Shown here: positions 7,539 through 50,947 of the stretch, piece after piece
Layout: every line of letters begins with the position of its first letter
Position numbering within the stretch: position 1 is the first letter of the stretch
Source of the DNA: an uncultured Chloroflexia bacterium
GTDB taxonomy: Bacteria > Chloroflexota > Limnocylindria > QHBO01
Assembly: GCA_963827475.1 (NCBI GenBank)
Contig: CAWHAZ010000005.1
Location: 960,001 to 1,024,000 of the forward strand
Length of the DNA stretch: 64,000 bases
Reading direction: 5' to 3'
Position numbers and translations under genes: made by a program
The notes under the pieces: model-generated
Database searches by the model: none
Told to the model about the DNA's origin: nothing
What the model saw: only the letters and a program-made list of their open reading frames with translations

Positions 7539-8268
7539 CGGTTTGGATCCCGCTTGACCGAGGCCGCATGCCTCGGACCACGACCAGGGTGCCCTCGAAC
7601 AGGCCGTACATCAGGAGGGCCAGGATGACCATCGAGAAGGGGTCGCCACCCGGGGTCGCGACCGCCGACACGATCGCAATGATCAGGATGGCCCACCGCC
7701 GGCGGGAAGCGAGCCATTTCGGAGTGACGATCCCGAGTCGGACGAGGACGACGAGCACGACCGGGAACTGGAGCATCAGCCCGAACACGATCAGCAGGGT
7801 GGTGACGAAGCCGATGTACTCCTCCAGGATCGGGAATGGCTGGATCCCCTCACCGGCGAACCCGAACAGGAAGGTCAGCGCGTACGGCAGCACGAGGTAG
7901 CCGATGACGACTCCGAGGGCGAACAGGAGCAGGCCGGCCACGAGGAACGGCCACAGCAGGCGCTTCTCGCCCGGCATCAGGCCCGGCGTCACGAACTTGT
8001 AGAGCTCGAACAGGATCACCGGCATGGCGAGCGCGACGCCGACGAAGCCGGCGATCTTCAGGCGGGCGACAAACGCACCGGCCGGGCTGGTGAAGAAGAG
8101 GATGTCGAACTCGGTCGGTAGCGGCGCTCGCAGGATGTTGAGGACCTGCTCCGAGACGATGAAGCCGAGAATGCCGCCGATGAGGATCGCCGCGATGACG
8201 ATCATCAGCCGCCGGCGCAGCTCCTCGAGGTGCTCGACCATGGTCATGGCCGAGGCGTCCTGGCTCAT
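7525..8268 (-). CDS. tatC: Twin-arginine translocase subunit TatC
   Basis: MT.VEHLEELRRRL, FVTPGL.PGEK, FQFPV-like, TPGGDPFSM; six TM helices. Confidence 0.95.
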   Translation of the reverse strand: MSQDASAMTMVEHLEELRRRLMIVIAAILIGGILGFIVSEQVLNILRAPLPTEFDILFFTSPAGAFVARLKIAGFVGVALAMPVILFELYKFVTPGLMPGEKRLLWPFLVAGLLLFALGVVIGYLVLPYALTFLFGFAGEGIQPFPILEEYIGFVTTLLIVFGLMLQFPVVLVVLVRLGIVTPKWLASRRRWAILIIAIVSAVATPGGDPFSMVILALLMYGLFEGTLVVVRGMRPRSSGIQTDDEP

Positions 8269-8304
8269 CGGCTCAGGCAGGCCGGGGCGCCGTCAGGCGG
8301 GCGG

Positions 8305-8499
8305 TCAGCTCTTCGGCGTGGTGGTGTCGGACGGCTTCGCGTCGCCCCGGATCGAGTCCTCGATCTCGGAGGAGGCCTTCCGGAACTCGCGAATCCCCTT
8401 GCCGATGGCGTTGCCGATGTCCGGCAACCGTCCCGGGCCGAAGAGGATGAGCACGATCACCAGGACGATGATGAGCTCGGGGGCTCCGATGGTTGGCAT
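8305..8499 (-). CDS. tatA: Twin-arginine translocase subunit TatA
   Basis: [42 protein letters not shown]; GAGGAG SD upstream. Confidence 0.93.
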
Positions 8500-8516
8500 C
8501 TTGCGGCCGACTCTCC

Positions 8517-9353
8517 TCAGCTGGTGGCGCCGAGTGTAGCACCCGCCTTTCGGAGGTCGTCCAGCCACGCCCGGGCCGCCGCGGCCACGCCTTCGCGCCA
8601 ATCCGGACCCGTCGCCGCTTCGGCGATGGCGCGCGAGACGTTGACCAGGCCGGGTGCCGCGGATCCATCGCAGCTCTCGACCGCAGCCTGCAGGTCGCCC
8701 CCCTGGGCGCCGACGCCCGGGACGAGGAATCCCGGTGCGGGCACCTCGGACCGCAGGCGGCGGAGCTCCGCGGGATCCGTGGCGCCCACCACCAGGCCGA
8801 CGCGGCCGTCGGTCCATCGCTCGGCGGCCCAGCGCGCGACGGCCGTCGACAGCGGGACGCCGTCGACGGCGAGGTCCTGGAGCCGGCCCGCGCTCGGGTT
8901 CGAGGTTCGCGCCAGCAGGTAGACGAGGCGGCCGGGATAGTCGAGGAACGGCTCGATCGCGTCCTCGCCGAGGTACGGCTGGAGGGTGACCGCGTCCGCT
9001 TCCAGGTGACCCATCAGGGCTTCCGCGTAGCGCTCGGCGGACGGACCGATGTCGCCGCGCTTCGCGTCGAGGATGACGATCGGCCCCGTCGGGATCGCAG
9101 CGCGCGTGCGCTCGAGGGCTGCCCAGCCCGCGGAGCCAAGTGCCTCGAAGTAGGACGTGTTGAGCTTGACCGCCACGACCAGCTCGGCGGCCGCCTCGAC
9201 CAGGCCGCGCGCGAAGGACTCGACGCCGGCGGCATCGCGTCCGAGGCCATCGGGCAAGGCGTCGGGGCGCGGATCGATTCCGAGGCACAACGGCGCGCCA
9301 ATCGCCGCGCGCCGCTCCCGAAGGCGCTCGAGCGGGGTGGGGCCCTCACTCAT
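8517..9353 (-). CDS. pyrF: Orotidine-5'-phosphate decarboxylase
   Basis: [45 protein letters not shown]. Confidence 0.93.
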
Positions 9354-11110
9354 CCGGCGACCGGGATCGGCTCGAGCGGTGGATGGGCCTTCCGGCGCCG
9401 AGCGGCGAGGGGTGAGGCGTCCGCGGTCGCGTAGTCGATCACCCTCAGCTGGAGCCGGGGCTCGCCGTCCAGCATCCGCGACTCGAGGGTCGCCACCAGG
9501 TCGAGCGCGGCGCCGGCCTCCGGCGTCTCCTGGTCCTCCGCGACCCCGAATGCGATGGCGTCGATCGTCTCGAGCCCCTTCCGCATCCGCATCGAGAGGT
9601 GATTCTCGGCGGCGCCGACCCGTCGTGCGTCGCCGACGGTCAGGCCAGTGACGGCGAGGACCGGCTCGCCATGGCCCGCCCCGTAGGGCGCCAGGCCCTC
9701 GAGCTCGGCCAGCAGGGACCAGCCAACGTAGCGCGCCGGCAGGACGAGATCGACGGGGAGCGCGCCCGGCGGCGTCGGGACGACCGCCTGGTCAGGCGGG
9801 TACGGCCGCGGGAGGGCGGCGAAGGCGGCGGCGAAGGCGTCCCATTGCTCGGGCGCGGCGCTGAACCCGCCGGCTGCCGCGTGCCCGCCCCGCTTGGCGA
9901 GGTGCTCTCCGACGGCATCGAGCCCGAGCGTGACGTCGAAATCGGCCGGGGCGCGGATCGAGCCGCGGACCTCCGGCTCGACCAGGCTTGCGGCCGCCAC
10001 CGGGCGGGCCAGCTCGTCGGACAGTCGACCGGCCACCAGGCCGAGCAGGCCCGCGGGCCAGGCGTCGTCGCGGAGGGCCAGCGGCCCGCTGCCCGGGCGG
10101 TCGGCGGCCATACGGCGCGCGCTTTCGATCGCGATGGTGGTCAGCTCCCGTCGCCGCAGGTGGACCTCCTCCAGCTCGGTGAGCAGGGCCTCGGCCCGTG
10201 CCGGGTCGGTGGCGACCAGCAGGTCGAGCGCCAGCTCGGCATCGGCAATGCGCCCTGCGGCGTTCAGCCGCGGAACGATGCCGTATCCGACGTCACGCGC
10301 CGTCGGCCGCGACGGTTCCTCCGCGCCCCGCTGGAGCAGGCCCCGCAGTCCGGGATGGGTCGTGGTCGCCAGCTCGGCGAGGCCCATCCGGATGATGGCC
10401 CGGCTCTCCCCGATGAGCGGCGCCACGTCGGCGATGGCCCCGATCGCGGCCAGGGCCGCCAGGTCCGCGGCTTCGACGCCCCGGCGGGCGAGAAGCGCGC
10501 TCGCGAGGCGGTACGCCAGCCCGGCCCCGGTGAGATCGCGGTTCGGGTACGTGCAGTCCGGGCGGTGCGGATCGACGACGGCGACCGCGGCCGGCAGGAC
10601 AGCCGGCGGCACGTGATGGTCGGTCACGACCACGTCCATGCCGAGCTCGTTCGCCACCGCCACCTCGGCCGCGTTGCCGACCCCGCAGTCGCAGGTCACG
10701 ACCAGCCGCACGCCCTGCCCGGCCAGCGTCCGGAGTCCCTCCACCGACAGGCCGTAGCCCTCCGCCAGGCGAGAGGGCACGTACCGGATCGGCTCGACCC
10801 CGAGTCGACGAAGGGCGAGCACCCAGATCGCGACCGCGGTCATGCCATCGGCGTCGTAATCGCCCCAGATGGCGATCGTCTCTCCGTGGTCGACGGCGGC
10901 CTCGATGCGCTCGAGCGCGGCATGGGCATCGGTCATCAGGTCCAGCGCGGGGAGATCGGCCGAGCCCGCGTGGAGGAAGGCCGCGGCCTCGGCATCGGTC
11001 TGGATCCCGCGTCGAACGAGCAGCGTCGCGACCGGGGCGCCGAACCCGGTCAGGGCCGGTGGACGGTCAAGCGGGGGCGGGAGCAACCAGTCGAACCGGG
11101 GCCGGATCAT
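9350..11110 (-). CDS. recJ: ssDNA-specific exonuclease RecJ
   Basis: GDYDADG, EGYGL, TCDCG, TDHH, PRLNAAGR, GGHAAAGG. Confidence 0.95.
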   Translation of the reverse strand: MIRPRFDWLLPPPLDRPPALTGFGAPVATLLVRRGIQTDAEAAAFLHAGSADLPALDLMTDAHAALERIEAAVDHGETIAIWGDYDADGMTAVAIWVLALRRLGVEPIRYVPSRLAEGYGLSVEGLRTLAGQGVRLVVTCDCGVGNAAEVAVANELGMDVVVTDHHVPPAVLPAAVAVVDPHRPDCTYPNRDLTGAGLAYRLASALLARRGVEAADLAALAAIGAIADVAPLIGESRAIIRMGLAELATTTHPGLRGLLQRGAEEPSRPTARDVGYGIVPRLNAAGRIADAELALDLLVATDPARAEALLTELEEVHLRRRELTTIAIESARRMAADRPGSGPLALRDDAWPAGLLGLVAGRLSDELARPVAAASLVEPEVRGSIRAPADFDVTLGLDAVGEHLAKRGGHAAAGGFSAAPEQWDAFAAAFAALPRPYPPDQAVVPTPPGALPVDLVLPARYVGWSLLAELEGLAPYGAGHGEPVLAVTGLTVGDARRVGAAENHLSMRMRKGLETIDAIAFGVAEDQETPEAGAALDLVATLESRMLDGEPRLQLRVIDYATADASPLAARRRKAHPPLEPIPVAG

Positions 11111-44800: not shown

Positions 44801-45929
44801 CGGTCAGCCCCCTCGCCCAGGAACTCGCGGACCAGGTTCTGGAAGTGGTACACGCCGTTCTCGCGCAGGGCGCTGAACCGGCCCCGGTCGTAGGCCCGCG
44901 ACCGCAGGCCGCGCTGGACCTGCTCGCACAGGACGATGTCCTCCTGCTGGATCTGGTCCGAGAACGCGATCCCCTGCTGCATCGACTCCCACCCGGCTCC
45001 GGTCCCCGGCTCGGCGAAGAACCACTCGAAGATCGTCAGCGTCCGCTCGTGGCCGAGCGGCAGGACGAGGTTCGACGACAGGTTGTCGGGGTAGATGTTG
45101 AACATCGTGTTCGGGAAGACCCAGTAGTACAGGGCGCTGTCCTCGCCGTCGCCGGTCCGCATGAACCGCCGGTCGCGCCCGACCTCCTCGCCCGGCTTCA
45201 GCTCGCGGATGGGGGCGTAGCTGACTTCGAGTAGTAGCGGAACTCCTCGACCCGGTAGGCGTCGTAGTCGACCTCGCGGAACAGGTCCGGGTGGGCAATC
45301 GGCAGGTGGTAGCCCTCGAGGTAGTTGTCGACGTAGACCTTCCAGTTGCAGTCGATGACGTACTCGCGCCGCTCGACGAGCCGCATGTGGTCGATGTCGA
45401 AGCCGGCCGCGGCAACCTCGGCCGGGATCGCGCCGAGGACGTCACCCAGCGGCGGCGCGTCCGGATCCAGGTTCGCGAAGACGAACGGTCCCCAGCGCTC
45501 GACCCGGATCGGGACCAGGCCGTAGTCCTCCTTGCGGAAGTCCTCGGTGGCCTCCATCTCCGGGCAGGCGCGCAGCGTGCCATCCAGCCCGTAGGTCCAG
45601 CCGTGGTATCGGCACTGGAGGCTCTTCCGGTTGCCCTTGGCCAGGGCCACCTGCCCCGCCCGGTGGCGGCAGACGTTGTAGAAGCCGCGCAGCTCCCCGT
45701 CGATGCCGTGGGTGACGACGATCGGCTCGTCGACGATGCTCCCCGGCACGAAGTCCCCGACCCGGCTCAGGTCCTCGGTGCGCGCCACGAGCTGCCAGGT
45801 GCGGGAGAAGATTCGGTCCTTCTCGGCGTCCAGGACGACGGGATCGAGGTAGTAGCGCGACGGGATCGTCGCGGCCCGGGCCAGCGGGACCGATGTTCCT
45901 TCGACCGATGCGGGCGGCATGCCCGTCAC
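44797..45929 (-). CDS. Rieske non-heme iron oxygenase alpha subunit, choline monooxygenase/CntA-like (frameshift near 45220)
   Basis: NVCRHR, CRYHGW, NWKVYVDNYLEGYH.P.AHP, FPN, EDI.LCE.VQRGL. Confidence 0.9.
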
Positions 45930-47827
45930 GGCAGGTCACCGCTCGCGGTCCGCTCTCCCGCGGCGTCGCGACCGTAGGTCAGCTCGCCGCCGGCGTCGGT
46001 CTGTGCCGTCAGGCTGAACGTGCCCTCGTCGTCGTTGATGATCGCGTCGCCGGTCAGTGCCAGGCCCTCCGAGAAGGCGCAGTGGTCGAGCGCGACGGCA
46101 TAGCCGACGTCGTTCGATTCATACGTGATCGTACCGCCGTAGTGACAGCCGTAGGTCAGCGGCGACTGCCCATCCCAGTACCACCAGTCCGGCGAGGTGT
46201 GGATCTCGTCGTCGACCGCGCCCAGGGCGTCCAGGGTCGAGGGGTAGTCGTCGACCGACGCCGCCGGGATCGGAACGTAGGGATCGACCCCGATGAACTC
46301 GCACTCCACCTCGCGACTGTCGGGCAGCGTCCCGCTCAGCAGGTAGGCGTCGAGGAGCTCGTCGGGGCAGGCCTCGCCTCGATACGAGATGACGTGCGGT
46401 CCGCCGGGCTGGGTGATGAGGTACGAGTTGTCGAGGTGAGCGGCCAGCCGTTGCGCGTTGGCGTATGGGGTGTAGGGATCCCACGTGGCGCCCAGGATGA
46501 AGACCGGGTACGGCGTGTCGCCGAGGTACGCGGGTCGCGTCTCCGGCCCGTGCGACGGCCAGTAGGCGCACGGGAGATCGAGGAAGTAACCGCTGCCCAG
46601 CCGCATCCCGTCAACCCCGGCGGCCGCACCGGCCGCGAAGTAGGCGTCGGCCCGCTGGTCGGCCGTGCCGGAACCGAAGGCGTAGTCCCCGCAGTCGACC
46701 GCGAAGTACAGGGCGTCGGACCAGGTCGGGTCGATGAGCGCCTTGAGGGTCTCCGGGTCCTGGCCGAGGGCGCCGTAGAGCAGCCGAGCCATGGGCAGGA
46801 GCTGGCCCCGGGAAGCCTGGGCCATCGCCCGCTGGAGGAACATGCGGTCGGTCGACGGACTCAGGTAGCTGCTCGCCGCAATCTCCAGGTCGTTGAGCCC
46901 AAACTCGCGGCGCTCCACGTCCCCGGATGCGGTCACGAAGTCGAAGCTCATCGGTCCGTCGCGCAGGGCCTCGGCCAGCCGGTCGTAGGCATCCAGGGCG
47001 TCCCCGCCCTCGACGTCGGAGCTGCAGACCGGGCCCGCGGTGCACGTGTCGAGCACGTCCGCCAGCACCGCGCCGGCCGCCTCGGTGGACTCGACGTAGT
47101 AGTCGGGGCCATCCACGGTGAGGTCGACTGGTCCGTCGATGAACAGCGCCGCGACCCGCTCGGGGTGGGCGGCCGCAAAGGCCTGGACGTACTGGGTCCC
47201 GTAGCTCTCGCCAAACAGGACGACCTCCTCCGCGCCGTGCCACCCGAGGAAGGCCTCCAGGTCCTCGACCGCCTGGGCCGTGCTGTACAGGTCCAGGTCG
47301 TCGGGATCGACCCCGGCCTCGGCCACGCAGTCGGCCACGTAGGCCTCGGTGGCGCCGCGGAACGCCTCCGCCTCCGCGGCCGTGCCGGTCGGGATCTCCG
47401 GGGTCGTGTACCAGGCCAGGGACGCCGCGGGGCACTGGAGCGGCTGCGACAGGCCGATCCCCCGCTGGTCGAAGAAGATGATGTCGTAGCGCTCGGGAAC
47501 CTCCGGGTCGAAGTAGGTCGTGTAGTCGTCGGCGACCGCGATGCCGGACGTGCCCGGGCCGCCGGTCGCGTACACGAGGACCCCATCGCGTGTGCCGCTC
47601 AGGGCTCGCTGGATGGCGAACGTCACCTCCCACGTCTCGCCGCCCGCGTCGGCGTGATCGCGCGGGACGTTCAGCGTGACGCAGCTGAAGCCGCTGTCCG
47701 GGCAGCCTCGTTCGCGGACGAAGGTGGGGTCGCGCTCGATGAGCAGCGTCGCCAGCGCCCAGACCCCGATCCCGAGCGCCACGAGCAGGCCGAACACGAG
47801 CAGCGGGCGGCTGGACAGGGCCGACAT
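45926..47827 (-). CDS. Membrane-anchored alpha/beta hydrolase, TAP-like peptidase family
   Basis: TM helix, GGPG.SG, FDQRG.G.S, GESYGT, WDP.TPY, GPH; Cys-rich. Confidence 0.85.
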   Translation of the reverse strand: MSALSSRPLLVFGLLVALGIGVWALATLLIERDPTFVRERGCPDSGFSCVTLNVPRDHADAGGETWEVTFAIQRALSGTRDGVLVYATGGPGTSGIAVADDYTTYFDPEVPERYDIIFFDQRGIGLSQPLQCPAASLAWYTTPEIPTGTAAEAEAFRGATEAYVADCVAEAGVDPDDLDLYSTAQAVEDLEAFLGWHGAEEVVLFGESYGTQYVQAFAAAHPERVAALFIDGPVDLTVDGPDYYVESTEAAGAVLADVLDTCTAGPVCSSDVEGGDALDAYDRLAEALRDGPMSFDFVTASGDVERREFGLNDLEIAASSYLSPSTDRMFLQRAMAQASRGQLLPMARLLYGALGQDPETLKALIDPTWSDALYFAVDCGDYAFGSGTADQRADAYFAAGAAAGVDGMRLGSGYFLDLPCAYWPSHGPETRPAYLGDTPYPVFILGATWDPYTPYANAQRLAAHLDNSYLITQPGGPHVISYRGEACPDELLDAYLLSGTLPDSREVECEFIGVDPYVPIPAASVDDYPSTLDALGAVDDEIHTSPDWWYWDGQSPLTYGCHYGGTITYESNDVGYAVALDHCAFSEGLALTGDAIINDDEGTFSLTAQTDAGGELTYGRDAAGERTASGDLP

Positions 47828-47955
47828 CCGCGGCATGCTAGCAGCCGGACACCGTGCGGGAATCCTTGCCGCGGAGGCGAGCCTCCGTGGTACACCACGG
47901 CCTACATATCGGCGCGCCGTCCTGCCCGACGGCCTGCGCTCCCGAAGGAGGGTTC

Positions 47956-48825
47956 ATGAGCACATTGCGACGTGGTTTGGCCCTGCTGGCCGGCCTCCTT
48001 GTCGTCGCGGCCTGCCAGGGCGGAACGGCGGAGATTCCGGCCACCGTCTGTGTCGGCGAGGCGACGACCTACCTCGACTGGTTGAACGGTGACCTGCTGC
48101 CGGACGTACCCGACGAGATCGTCGAGCCGGCGGATCCGACCGGCGACCTGCTCGAGGATATCCAGGAAGCTGGTGTCCTCCGGATCGCAACCGAGGCGAA
48201 CTACGAGCCGCAGTCCTTCCGTGACCCGGACGGCAACTGGGTCGGCTTCGACATCGACGTCGGGACGGCGATCGCCGAGGGCCTGGGCGTCGAGCCCGAG
48301 TTCCAGCACCAGGACTGGGACATCATCACCGCCGGTAGCTGGGCGGAGCGCTGGGACGTCAGCGTCGGTTCGATGACGATCACGACTGACCGAAAGGAGC
48401 TCTTCGGCTTCGCCACGCCGTACTACTTCACGCCGGCGTACATGGCGGCGAGTGAGCGGTCGGGTGTCACCAGCGTGGACGACCTGCCGTTCGACGTACC
48501 GGATGGCGTCGAGGCGATCACGCGCCCGGTCGATGGGAACTGCATCGAGGACATCGAGGCCGGTCGAACCGAGTTCGACCTTCTCATGACCTCGGGCACC
48601 GTCATCGATTCGGCCGTCGACGACGGCCTGCCGATCGTGAAGATCGGCGAGCCGGTCTACACCGAGAACCTGTCCATCGCCCTCGACAAGGCCGGCCCTG
48701 AGCAGGCGGCGCTCCTCTACGAGATCGACCAGATCATCCAAGGGATGCACGAGGATGGAACCCTCACCGCCCTCAGCGAGGAGTGGTTCGGCGCCGACCT
48801 CACCCAGGATCCAAGCGGCGAGTGA
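47956..48825 (+). CDS. Polar amino-acid ABC transporter substrate-binding lipoprotein (permuted)
   Basis: Lipobox VAAC, YEPQSF, GFDIDV, SMTIT..RK, DGTL..LS.EWFG; AAGGAGG SD. Confidence 0.9.
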   Translation: MSTLRRGLALLAGLLVVAACQGGTAEIPATVCVGEATTYLDWLNGDLLPDVPDEIVEPADPTGDLLEDIQEAGVLRIATEANYEPQSFRDPDGNWVGFDIDVGTAIAEGLGVEPEFQHQDWDIITAGSWAERWDVSVGSMTITTDRKELFGFATPYYFTPAYMAASERSGVTSVDDLPFDVPDGVEAITRPVDGNCIEDIEAGRTEFDLLMTSGTVIDSAVDDGLPIVKIGEPVYTENLSIALDKAGPEQAALLYEIDQIIQGMHEDGTLTALSEEWFGADLTQDPSGE

Positions 48826-48853
48826 GCCGGGAAGGCTGACACCGGCGACCCAC

Positions 48854-48891
48854 AAGGGCGGGGATCGCAAGGGTCCCCGCCCTTTGCCTTT
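48854..48891 (+). terminator. Intergenic hairpin (terminator or mRNA stabiliser) between SBP and permease
   Basis: AGGGCGGGGATC-GCAA-G-GGTCCCCGCCCT followed by TTGCCTTT. Confidence 0.65.
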
Positions 48892-48906
48892 GCATGAGGA
48901 GCCGCC

Positions 48907-49716
48907 ATGACCGTCGCCGTCGGAACCCCGGAGCCCGGTTCACTCCTCGCCCAGATCGAGGCCAGCCAGGCGCGATATCGGTCGATCTTCCGCCTGAAGT
49001 TCTTCCTCACCTGGGCAGCCCTGATCGGTCTGCTCCTCGTCGGCCTGTATGCGACCGGCAACATCGACACCGCGTTCATCGCCGAGTGGGGTCCGTTCAT
49101 CATCGGCGGAGCCGGGCTCACCGTCTTCGTCTCGGCGGTGTCGATCGTGTTCGCCACGATCCTGGCCCTGATCGGCGCCATCGGACGGATGTCCCGCAAC
49201 CCGTACATCAACGGCATCGCCTCGCTCTACGTGTCGCTCGTGCGGGGCACGCCGCTGATCGTCCAGATCTACTTCATCTACCTCGCCCTGCCGCAGCTCG
49301 GCATCGTGCTCGCGGCCATCCCGTCGGGGATCATCGCCCTGAGCTTCAACTACGGCGCGTACATGACCGAGGTGTTCCGGGCCGGTATCCAGGCCGTGCC
49401 GCGCGGCCAGCGCGAGGCGGCCCAGTCGTTGGGTCTCACCGAGCGGCTGGTGATGTGGCGGATCGTCATGCCGCAGGCGTTCCGGATCGTGATCCCGGCC
49501 ATCGGCAACGACTTCGTGGCCATGCTGAAGGACTCCTCGCTGGTCTCGATCCTGGCCGTCGAGGAGCTGCTGTTCCGCTCCCAGCTGGTGGGTCGGCAGA
49601 ACTTCCGAAGCCTCGAGGCACTCGTCATCGCCGCCGCCATGTACTGGATCCTGACCATCGTGTTCAGCTACTTCCAGCAGCGGCTCGAGCAGCGCATGGC
49701 CCGGGGTGACCGATGA
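48907..49716 (+). CDS. Polar amino-acid ABC permease
   Basis: RGTPLIVQ, YGAYMTEVFRAGI.AVP.GQ.EAA, PQA.R, LKDSSL. Confidence 0.93.
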   Translation: MTVAVGTPEPGSLLAQIEASQARYRSIFRLKFFLTWAALIGLLLVGLYATGNIDTAFIAEWGPFIIGGAGLTVFVSAVSIVFATILALIGAIGRMSRNPYINGIASLYVSLVRGTPLIVQIYFIYLALPQLGIVLAAIPSGIIALSFNYGAYMTEVFRAGIQAVPRGQREAAQSLGLTERLVMWRIVMPQAFRIVIPAIGNDFVAMLKDSSLVSILAVEELLFRSQLVGRQNFRSLEALVIAAAMYWILTIVFSYFQQRLEQRMARGDR

Positions 49717-50547
49717 CCGAATCGACTCCGCCGGCGCCAAGCCACGGACACCGGCATCACGAGGTCATTGCCCCGCATCTCGGCGAGCCCATCGTCCGGG
49801 CCGAGGCCATCGAGAAGTATTACGGGCGGAACCACGTCCTGAAGGGAATGGACCTCACCGTCCGCAAAGGCGAGGCGGTCATGCTCATCGGTCGCTCGGG
49901 AAGCGGCAAGACCACGTTCCTGCGCTGCGTGAACTTCCTCGAGGAGCCCTCGGCCGGCTCGGTCGAGATCGATGGCCTGCGGGTGGCGGCCGATCCGCTG
50001 CACGCGCGAAGCAAGGCCCACCTTGAGCAGATCCGCCAGATCCGGATCCGCGCCGGGATGGTGTTCCAGGACTTCAACCTGTTCCCGCACATGAGCGTCC
50101 TCGCACAACCTCATCGAGGCGCCGACGCGGGTCCTGAAGGTTCCCCGGGCAGAGGCCGTGGAGCGGGCGGAGGCATACCTCGACAAGGTGGGCCTTGCCG
50201 AGAAGCGGGACGAATACCCCGCTCGGCTGTCCGGTGGCCAGAAGCAGCGGGTGGCCATCGCTCGCGCCCTGTGCATGGAGCCCAAGGTCCTCCTCTTCGA
50301 CGAGCCGACCAGCGCCCTGGATCCGGACCTCATCGGTGAGGTGCTGAAGGTGATGGAGCAGCTCGCCCACGAAGGCGCGACGATGATCGTGGTCACCCAC
50401 GAGCTGCATTTCGCGCGGGAGGCGGCCGACCGGGTCGTGTTCCTCGAGGAAGGCGGCGTGGCGGAGGAAGGGCCGCCCGAGAAAATGCTCCACGACCCGG
50501 ACGACGAGCGGACCCGCCAGTTCCTCAGGCGATTCCTGGCCGGCTAG
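49713..50547 (+). CDS. Polar amino-acid ABC ATPase (frameshift near 50105)
   Basis: GRSGSGKTT, MVFQDFNLFPH, LSGGQKQRVAIARAL, FDEPTSALDP. Confidence 0.92.
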
Positions 50548-50575
50548 CCGGGCGCGCCTGGGAGGTCCTAGGCGG

Positions 50576-50947
50576 TCACCGCCGCACGCCGTAGACCTGG
50601 GCTCGCGGCAGTCGTGCCGCCTCGTCCTCCGCCCGCACCCGGTCCGTCGCCGGCTTGAACGCCACCGGCGTGTCGCGAGGCTTTCCGCCCTCGTGGGCAA
50701 TCAACCACTGCAGGCCGACCTGGGTGAGCTTGGCCCCGCCGGCCTGACCAGGCTCGATGAACGGAGCGATCAGGAATCGGCGCTGGTGGAGGCGCTCGAC
50801 CGAGACCTGGAGCTCCACCGGGTCGATCCCAAGCTCCGCCGCCAGCGCGTCGAGGTCCAGCTCCCGGTTCGGATACCGGCGCAGGTGGCGCAGGATGGCG
50901 GCTGTCAGCTCGTCCCCGCGCTTGGCGGACGCCTTGGTCGGACTCAC
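50576..50947 (-). CDS. Hypothetical winged-HTH protein
   Basis: AIL..L....LD.LAAELGID...L...V.RL....L...LT..G pattern; TATCAT -10 box 7 nt upstream. Confidence 0.65.
   Translation of the reverse strand: MSPTKASAKRGDELTAAILRHLRRYPNRELDLDALAAELGIDPVELQVSVERLHQRRFLIAPFIEPGQAGGAKLTQVGLQWLIAHEGGKPRDTPVAFKPATDRVRAEDEAARLPRAQVYGVRR

Follow-up and report, generated by a model that had tools for sequence, protein, structure and literature searches.

The window analysed here is a stretch of 64,000 nucleotides from an uncultured Chloroflexia bacterium (contig CAWHAZ010000005.1, positions 960,001 to 1,024,000). On its forward strand, at 47956–48825, lies an intact open frame of 289 codons that encodes a predicted lipoprotein of 289 amino acids, a member of the family-3 (SBP_bac_3) solute-binding proteins. 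In a first-pass annotation, made from the letters of the DNA alone, it was proposed that one strand-helix segment of this protein, normally found directly after the sequence DDL, lies instead behind the lipobox near the N-terminus. Here we follow up that proposal with profile alignments, searches of related genomes, phylogenetic reconstruction and structure models, and refer throughout to three blocks of the protein, A, B and C, which stand in the order A-B-C in canonical proteins and in the order B-A-C in the protein of the window.

All of the elements of the gene are read on the forward strand. A Shine-Dalgarno-like AGGAGG (47946–47951), read from the sequence, stands upstream of the ATG at 47956, and the first twenty codons (47956–48015) encode a predicted lipoprotein signal peptide, M1–C20, with basic residues, a hydrophobic core and the lipobox V-A-A-C. 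Lipoboxes follow the pattern [LVI][ASTVI][GAS]C, and Cys20 (48013–48015) was assigned by eye from this pattern as the predicted lipidation site; A19 and C20 are kept in at least 90% of 121 family members. The relocated segment B, residues 30–48 (48043–48099), consists of a strand (30–34), a GEATT ligand loop and a helix (38–43); its residues T30–L47 read TVCVGEATTYLDWLNGDL (48043–48096) and include Cys32 (48049–48051). There follows a linker rich in Pro, Asp and Glu (residues 49–62, 48100–48141), which leads from lobe 2 to the start of lobe 1 as a third inter-lobe crossover and has no counterpart at the same place in the canonical profile. Segment A (residues 63–177, 48142–48486) holds the N-terminal part of lobe 1, the S139-T141-R146 motif, the hinge strand 157–166 and the start of lobe 2, and ends in DDL. 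At 48484–48492 the profile and the alignments with relatives place an excision scar, where L177 is joined to P178-F179: the sequence SGVTSVDDL ends at 48486 and PFDVPDG follows directly, at a point where canonical relatives have about 28–31 additional residues (G-x-x-[IV]-C-V-G-E-A-T-T-Y...). Segment C (residues 178–289 and the stop codon, 48487–48825) supplies the rest of lobe 2, with strands 186–190, 209–213 and 227–230 in the secondary structure of the AlphaFold2 model, as well as the hinge strand 236–244 and the C-terminal helices of lobe 1; it contains Cys196 (48541–48543).

Domain-model annotation is silent on such rearrangements, and Pfam gives an ordinary match to SBP_bac_3 (PF00497) over residues 75–279, with 107.1 bits against a cut-off of 26.4. 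In solved amino-acid-binding proteins the ligand is bound by a Ser/Thr...Arg motif in lobe 1 and a Gly-x-x-Thr-Thr loop in lobe 2. Both motifs are present here, as S-x-T-x-x-x-x-R in lobe 1 and G-x-x-T-T in lobe 2, the latter coming from the relocated segment B. The residues S139, T141, T143, R146, T37, T38, Y39 and C196 are invariant in 121 sequences, and across 20 aligned sequences the whole run C32–Y39 does not vary.

From a library of 50%-identity representatives we took 24 relatives with the canonical order and built a profile, which matches the protein in three pieces whose profile positions run 148–166, 27–144 and 176–280. Residues 30–48 correspond to the first of these (17.0 bits, E 6e-7 in a four-sequence search), residues 60–177 to the second (181 bits) and residues 181–285 to the third (89.6 bits), and in four family members the N-terminal piece reaches profile positions 148–176. 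Because profile positions 145–175 are unmatched internally and have their homologue at the N-terminus, the piece missing inside the protein is the piece present at its start. Alignments by phmmer to the solved canonical proteins 5tuj and 4zv1 leave about 17 extra target residues after DDL, and the central strand of lobe 2 does not come right after the first hinge strand and the DDL turn, as it does in the canonical N-to-C order. The most direct comparison is with the canonical protein P0126, which is 51% identical overall: residues 32–43 of the window protein, CVGEATTYLDWL, are identical at 12 of 12 positions to an internal segment of P0126, which reads ...EELAGATI-CVGEATTYLDWL-EG... after its equivalent of DDL. 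P0126 in turn can be aligned over its full length with TTC0807 of Thermus, whose structure is solved (3vv5), the motif falling on the VGVQVGTTYME strand-helix. A whole-genome search likewise places residues 29–50 of the window protein (P0001), at 70–77% identity, between A and C of canonical genes in the genomes G007, G009 and G024.

On these alignments, the likeness of the N-terminal segment to the missing piece is one of homology and not of chance, and the protein is a natural non-circular permutation, B-A-C against the universal A-B-C. Exchanging its ends does not restore the canonical order; joining them gives A-C-B, which is not the canonical cycle, and the change is therefore not a circular permutation. 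By descent the protein is a permuted member of SBP_bac_3, and by topology it is not canonical. The first-pass annotation is borne out on each of these points: the canonical strand-helix is absent after DDL and its homologue lies behind the lipobox (profile pieces and P0126 alignment), T30–L47 and the end of DDL had been placed exactly, the frame is open over its 289 codons and under purifying selection, and alignment with homologues gives B internal in canonical relatives and B-A-C in the family. The opposite outcome, in which the strand would still follow DDL and the N-terminal segment would be unrelated, is contradicted by the profile and by the 12/12 identity.

The rearranged order is widely distributed. 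A first search returned 121 proteins that are 63–87% identical to the window protein, every one of them B-A-C; 116 were called by a regular expression together with the break point, four with variant or truncated motifs by eye, and one has a break point that the script missed. When the most divergent B-A-C gene, from genome G017, was used as the query of a second search, 107 of 109 new proteins were B-A-C and two were canonical. In all, B-A-C is found in 228 distinct protein clusters at 90% identity (JGI, ENA, NCBI and Logan assemblies). Among 18 genomes of the same genus, ten carry B-A-C, the window's own counted, six published ones are canonical and two incomplete ones have no match; in G006, G015 and G012 the canonical order was read directly from the translated genes. 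This recurrence across clusters and genomes excludes an assembly artefact for the family. Three genomes deserve separate mention. G012 holds both forms, a B-A-C gene at the start of contig C126 and a canonical gene on C146 at the syntenic locus, which could mean that one of them is a paralogue or that the bin mixes strains; in G001 the B-A-C gene (C11) contains one in-frame TGA; and the unpublished genome G016 has one further canonical-type match, on which no claim rests.

Selection on the gene was assessed from codon alignments of nine genomes by counting pairwise synonymous and non-synonymous codon differences. Segment B shows 221 synonymous to 137 non-synonymous differences, compared with 904 to 1505 in segment A, 672 to 1557 in segment C and 120 to 288 in the linker. 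Segment B is thus the most constrained part of the gene, under the strongest purifying selection, and the linker is the fastest-evolving part of the mature protein.

Canonical and B-A-C forms share one syntenic locus in the same genus. Six loci were compared: three canonical ones of the same genus (L015, L016 and L019, the canonical genes of G006, G015 and G012 contig 146), two with B-A-C (L017 and L018, the latter from G013), and a canonical one from a different family in the same class (L020). In each of the six the binding-protein gene is accompanied by a permease gene, an ATPase gene and the downstream gene; the gene upstream has a match in all five loci of the same genus. A maximum-likelihood tree was calculated from the columns of A and C only, without the moved segment. 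In it all 32 B-A-C rows fall into a single clade of their own (ultrafast bootstrap 100, Shimodaira-Hasegawa-like approximate likelihood ratio test 96; present in 100% of 200 bootstrap trees), nested in a 99/98 clade with the canonical same-genus proteins and with P0126 and P0375. An earlier, quick tree of 85 rows had also required one change for B-A-C, with weak support (58), and sampling was then densified. Since every outgroup and the whole superfamily are canonical, the change ran from A-B-C to B-A-C, and once. The two states can be set side by side (slashes mark the block boundaries): the break region of the canonical P0375 reads ...DEF-SGET / ICAGESTTYVDWMEGTLSLVDAPD / PAEPPADITVTT..., and the early B-A-C protein P0272 reads ...NV / VCAGEATTYVDWIEGDLALAEPDP / MRITAVTGDPDDLL... 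after the lipobox and ...LDQL / PDELTVTT... internally. A short repeat, D-L-(L)-P-(F)-D-V-P-D..V-E, which stands both after B and after DDL, was considered as a scar of recombination and rejected; the B-A-C proteins that branch early (P0272, P0281 and P0285) lack it, the family consensus shows it weakly, and it is judged lineage-specific or due to chance.

How the moved segment may sit in the folded protein was examined with two kinds of model. AlphaFold2, given the 121-row alignment, returned a monomer with a mean predicted local distance difference test (pLDDT) of 91.0, a predicted template modelling score (pTM) of 0.85 and block means of 95–99 from residue 31 onward. In it residues 30–34 form a strand and 38–43 a helix, at a pLDDT of about 95, and the linker 49–62 is also at about 95. 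The body of the model, residues 64–285, superposes on 3vv5_A with a Z-score of 22.6 and a root-mean-square deviation of 2.5 Å over 215 of 237 residues; the roughly 22 target residues left unaligned approximate the size of segment B. All 1000 of 1000 chains compared reach a Z of at least 8, and all 50 among the matches listed reach about 20 or more; Foldseek gives template modelling scores of up to 0.81, normalised on the target. The structures superposed are closed, liganded canonical proteins, and the model has their two-lobed type II fold. The alignments of these sequential aligners span model residues from 43 or later to about 288 (mostly 62–285) and cannot place strand 30–34.

That strand was placed by the AlphaFold2 monomer and by a two-chain fold with ESMFold2, in which residues 24–62 were given as one chain and 63–289 as the other. 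The interface score ipSAE was 0.69, 0.76 and 0.68 in three runs, against 0.02 for the best of three controls; of 157 solved complexes 116 reach the mark applied to this score, as do 2 of 215 mismatched pairs. At least 94% of the contacts agree between runs, the partner has a pLDDT of at least 79, and the contacts of lowest error join 30–34 with 186–191 and with 207–212, and Cys32 with Cys196. Strand 30–34 is thus modelled between strands 186–190 and 209–213, the central position of lobe 2. In the same two-chain model linker residues 47–58 touch residues 121–126, 141–155, 161/163, 234–240 and 251–258, contacts by which the linker would follow lobe 1 and pass the two hinge strands. The first-pass annotation had further suggested that the N-terminal segment fills the sheet of domain 2, that its cysteine could pair with one in the body and that an extra inter-domain link is gained. 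Both models agree with the first suggestion, and Cys32 is modelled touching Cys196; the third follows from the chain order itself, since B (lobe 2), A (lobe 1 to lobe 2) and C (lobe 2 to lobe 1) in succession necessarily add a third inter-lobe crossover.

Both cysteines are found in all 118 family members in which both positions can be read. Among 88 representatives, 39 have the pair, 38 have neither, eight have the first only and three the second only, and some of the first-only rows have frameshifted C-terminal halves. The distribution does show that the two cysteines were in place before the rearrangement and survived it.

Our reading of these results, to which we assign a probability of roughly 0.85, is that the protein is the lipid-anchored receptor of a polar-amino-acid-type ATP-binding cassette (ABC) importer, built in the order B-A-C, with a normal fold in which B completes lobe 2 in cis. 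Segment B comprises the lobe 2 central strand together with the G-x-A-T-T ligand loop and the helix behind it, some 20–29 residues, and in one ancestor within a Chloroflexota genus (close relatives of which are named Candidatus Limnocylindria) it was lost after DDL and came to lie behind the lipobox. Block B may have been copied to the 5' end and its internal copy then lost, or the gene may have been duplicated in tandem, with deletions. In the mature protein the N-terminal strand would insert in cis between 186–190 and 209–213, giving lobe 2 its normal sheet, and would bring Cys32 next to Cys196, the two probably forming the disulfide of the canonical relatives. The chain would start in lobe 2, return to lobe 1 through an acidic, proline-rich linker of about 15 residues that passes the two hinge strands, cross to lobe 2 by hinge strand 157–166 and come back by hinge strand 236–244. 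The outcome would be an ordinary Venus-flytrap fold and binding site, formed by S139, T141 and R146 of lobe 1 and by G34, T37 and T38 of the relocated loop, with three inter-lobe connections in place of two and a lipid anchor only nine residues from the ligand-binding strand. We infer that the protein serves its transporter as receptor and that the class of ligand is unchanged; a small polar ligand would be captured and handed to the permease.

The neighbouring genes bear on this function. Directly downstream on the same strand lies the cognate ABC permease, of the polar amino acid (His/Glu/Gln/Arg/opine) type (48907–49716; TIGR01726, 94.8 bits against a cut-off of 42.2); its best named matches, the cystine and ectoine permeases, stay under the cut-offs of their own models. 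The ABC ATPase gene that follows (49713–50547, forward strand) is spread over two frames, 49713–50339 and 50095–50547, identified from the lists of open frames and from NCBIfam matches on both halves; one extra g near 50103 (within 50095–50110) splits it, and four of four aligned relatives are in frame. The extra base is either an assembly indel or the mark of a recent pseudogene. If the latter, the locus might be decaying in this genome, with an intact binding protein and a transporter dead through the ATPase frameshift. We consider this unlikely, although it is the strongest of the alternatives: the base is absent from the four relatives, yet it is a single-base difference in a seven-contig assembly, and possibly an error, and the binding protein, the permease and both halves of the ATPase are without other lesion. 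Upstream, on the reverse strand, a divergent and conserved neighbour (45926–47836) encodes a predicted secreted peptidase of alpha/beta-hydrolase type, 636 amino acids long, with a weak prolyl-aminopeptidase match (39.9 bits, below cut-off). It is syntenic in four of the six loci, at 62–64% identity in the three canonical same-genus ones and in pieces (42–74%) in the B-A-C locus L018; no match was found in the other B-A-C locus (L017) or in L020, of the six loci searched. In G013, the single-contig relative that carries L018, the peptidase matches (7917–9831 of the locus) are spread over several frames, which points to decay or to indel errors in its assembly. Elsewhere in the 1.92-Mb genome of the window the only other SBP_bac_3 match (52 bits) lies at 417972–418277 of contig C5 (locus L003), within an open frame of 431 amino acids, and the genome seems to hold very few family-3 binding proteins.

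A segment joined to the body by so long and flexible-looking a linker could also complete lobe 2 in trans, the protein then being an obligate domain-swapped dimer or a chain of molecules on the membrane. The arginine-binding protein (ArgBP) of Thermotoga has a swapped C-terminal helix. Swapping is likewise documented for engineered permuted halves of the ribose-binding protein (PMC10601554), and the two-chain model docks the segment as a separate chain. Against this, the AlphaFold2 monomer places both segment and linker at a pLDDT of about 95 with a pTM of 0.85, and the linker makes defined contacts along lobe 1 and the hinge in the model. Closure in cis is favoured, by the confident monomer model only, and we give completion in trans a slim chance, clearly below that of a decaying locus.

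Two further alternatives fare worse. The N-terminal segment might be an unrelated decoration of a protein whose lobe 2 has lost a strand and is degenerate or differently folded, as could be imagined from a Pfam match that covers 75–279 and nothing on 1–74; this is hardly credible for a segment that matches exactly the missing profile positions, is identical at 12/12 residues with a canonical relative, is the most conserved part of the family and is modelled as the central strand. As for an artefact of assembly or gene calling in this genome, its assembly has at least one probable indel, the ATPase frameshift, but the possibility can be dismissed, given the same order in 228 clusters and nine other genomes and a synonymous divergence across the junctions that fits a long-standing coding sequence.

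Several observations weigh against B-A-C as the working receptor of an importer with cis-completed lobe 2, and we collect them here. The ATPase frameshift means that the transporter of this genome might be inactive, unless the base is an assembly error. Among public read runs, none has more than 7% of the sampled words from 47900–50600, and the order in this particular genome rests on the assembly. The passing of the docking mark may reflect a memory, in the model, of the canonical fold, and so only a likeness to a split canonical protein, and the geometry rests on one contact list and on DSSP strings. Covariation of the two cysteines was tried as independent evidence of their contact and rejected: the raw co-occurrence (Fisher p 1.5e-13) collapses on the tree to two changes and one change, that is, to one or two independent pairs, and so carries no statistical weight. 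No intermediate with two copies of B was found, with none among 271 and 109 proteins (150 representatives and 121 from the first search; 109 from the second), which leaves the route of origin a conjecture. No NCBIfam equivalog matches at its cut-off, the best being the cystine-binding protein with 103 bits against 312. Finally, Ser213 (48592–48594) is aligned with a conserved Asp in the third lobe-2 strand of AncCDT-1. That Asp makes the usual contact to the alpha-ammonium group of the ligand. With Ser in its place, which is also found at this position in canonical close relatives, the contact may be made differently, and the class of ligand is uncertain. Many aromatic residues are invariant (W121, W129, W133, Y83, F98, Y156 and Y157), and the protein may bind something other than a standard alpha-amino acid.

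The receptor with cis-completed lobe 2 seems, from the models, to be a rare natural case in which the chain has been rewired and the shape apparently kept. According to a study of the subject (PMC10085705), non-circular permutations within a protein domain are less common than circular ones. They are usually inferred between distant structures; here they are seen between orthologues of one genus at one locus. Because both states survive at one locus, the piece is recognisable letter for letter and the direction is clear, the system is an unusually clean one, which serves the questions of how far a fold tolerates changed connectivity, which intermediates are viable and what an extra hinge crossover does to Venus-flytrap dynamics. 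It also indicates that the ligand-binding strand-helix of family 3 can be supplied from another point of the chain, which is useful for the design of split or insertion-based biosensors.

Other rearrangements occur among the relatives. Three metagenomic proteins, P0135, P0137 and P0173, are true circular permutants of the same family, B-C-A, with profile positions 137–280 followed by 27–136, and are cut just before the DDL-AG-x-x-CVG strand; a fourth, P0171, also metagenomic, is cut elsewhere (197–279, then 20–196), and all four have a lipoprotein signal. Each of the four pairs with a canonical sister protein of its own in the 85-row tree (supports of 93, 98 and 99, and 94 for P0171), so that four independent changes are needed. 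P0123 (576 amino acids) consists of two complete canonical units fused in tandem (48–305 and 317–571), the kind of intermediate presumed by models of permutation by duplication. Proteins of about 1,000–2,000 amino acids (P0153, P0181, P0193, P0217, P0222, P0239, P0242, P0244, P0249 and P0251) carry three to seven binding-protein units in tandem, and start with a C-terminal half-unit and end with an N-terminal one, as an array of circularly permuted units would be expected to appear when read against the canonical profile. One might go further and propose, as a joint hypothesis, that B-A-C is not neutral, the third crossover and the near anchor altering the equilibrium between open and closed states or coupling binding to the transporter's membrane-proximal geometry, and that the clade is a natural hot spot of topological rewiring, with one transposition fixed and radiated, at least four independent circular permutations at or near the DDL/CVG junction and tandem arrays phased there. 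We regard this extension as tentative and would sooner bet against it than for it; if true, it would describe a mechanistically distinct tethered receptor.

The closest solved canonical proteins belong to type II, cluster F: Thermus TTC0807 (3vv5), the ancestral proteins AncCDT-1 (5t0w) and AncQR (4zv1), and the Neisseria cystine receptor (2yln). Like canonical family-3 proteins, the window protein has the SBP_bac_3 match, the two-lobed fold, the ligand motifs and an operon with a polar-amino-acid permease and ATPase; unlike them, it has the G-x-x-T-T strand-loop-helix encoded before lobe 1 and not after DDL, and three inter-lobe crossovers where they have two. The Cys32/Cys196 pair is common to it and its nearest canonical relatives. 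The canonical orthologues at L015, L016 and L019 and the metagenomic P0126 and P0375 are 43–51% identical to it over A and C and share the CVGE-x-TTY motif and the cysteine pair, the same-genus ones at the same locus, whereas they keep B between A and C and pass from the lipobox directly to the D-L-L helix.

Permuted binding proteins as such are already known, and among the matches listed the closest precedent is TpMglB-2 (Tp0684) of Treponema pallidum, a natural circularly permuted glucose-binding lipoprotein designated 'Type Ic / Cluster Bc' (PMC4990184). It is a type I protein of cluster B whose N-terminal three strands have moved to the C-terminus, with poor similarity in the moved part; a fourth hinge crossover lies by the canonical hinge, the protein still binds glucose and closes, and the authors tie the topology to tethering (PMC4990184). 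TpMglB-2 has in common with the window protein a natural, conserved permutation, a lipid anchor (here predicted) and one extra hinge crossover, while the latter is a type II protein of family 3, non-circularly permuted, with some 20–29 residues moved that are sequence-identical to the canonical segment and with canonical orthologues in its own genus. In the full-text literature, with subscription journals outside its scope, no natural permutation of a family-3 binding protein was found among the matches listed. Fukami-Kobayashi is said to have described in 1999 a 'domain dislocation' between type I and type II binding proteins, in which a core beta-strand was reportedly shifted and the two-lobed fold kept. 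That event is reportedly ancient and lies between classes, whereas the change to B-A-C is recent, belongs to one genus and leaves both states alignable residue by residue.

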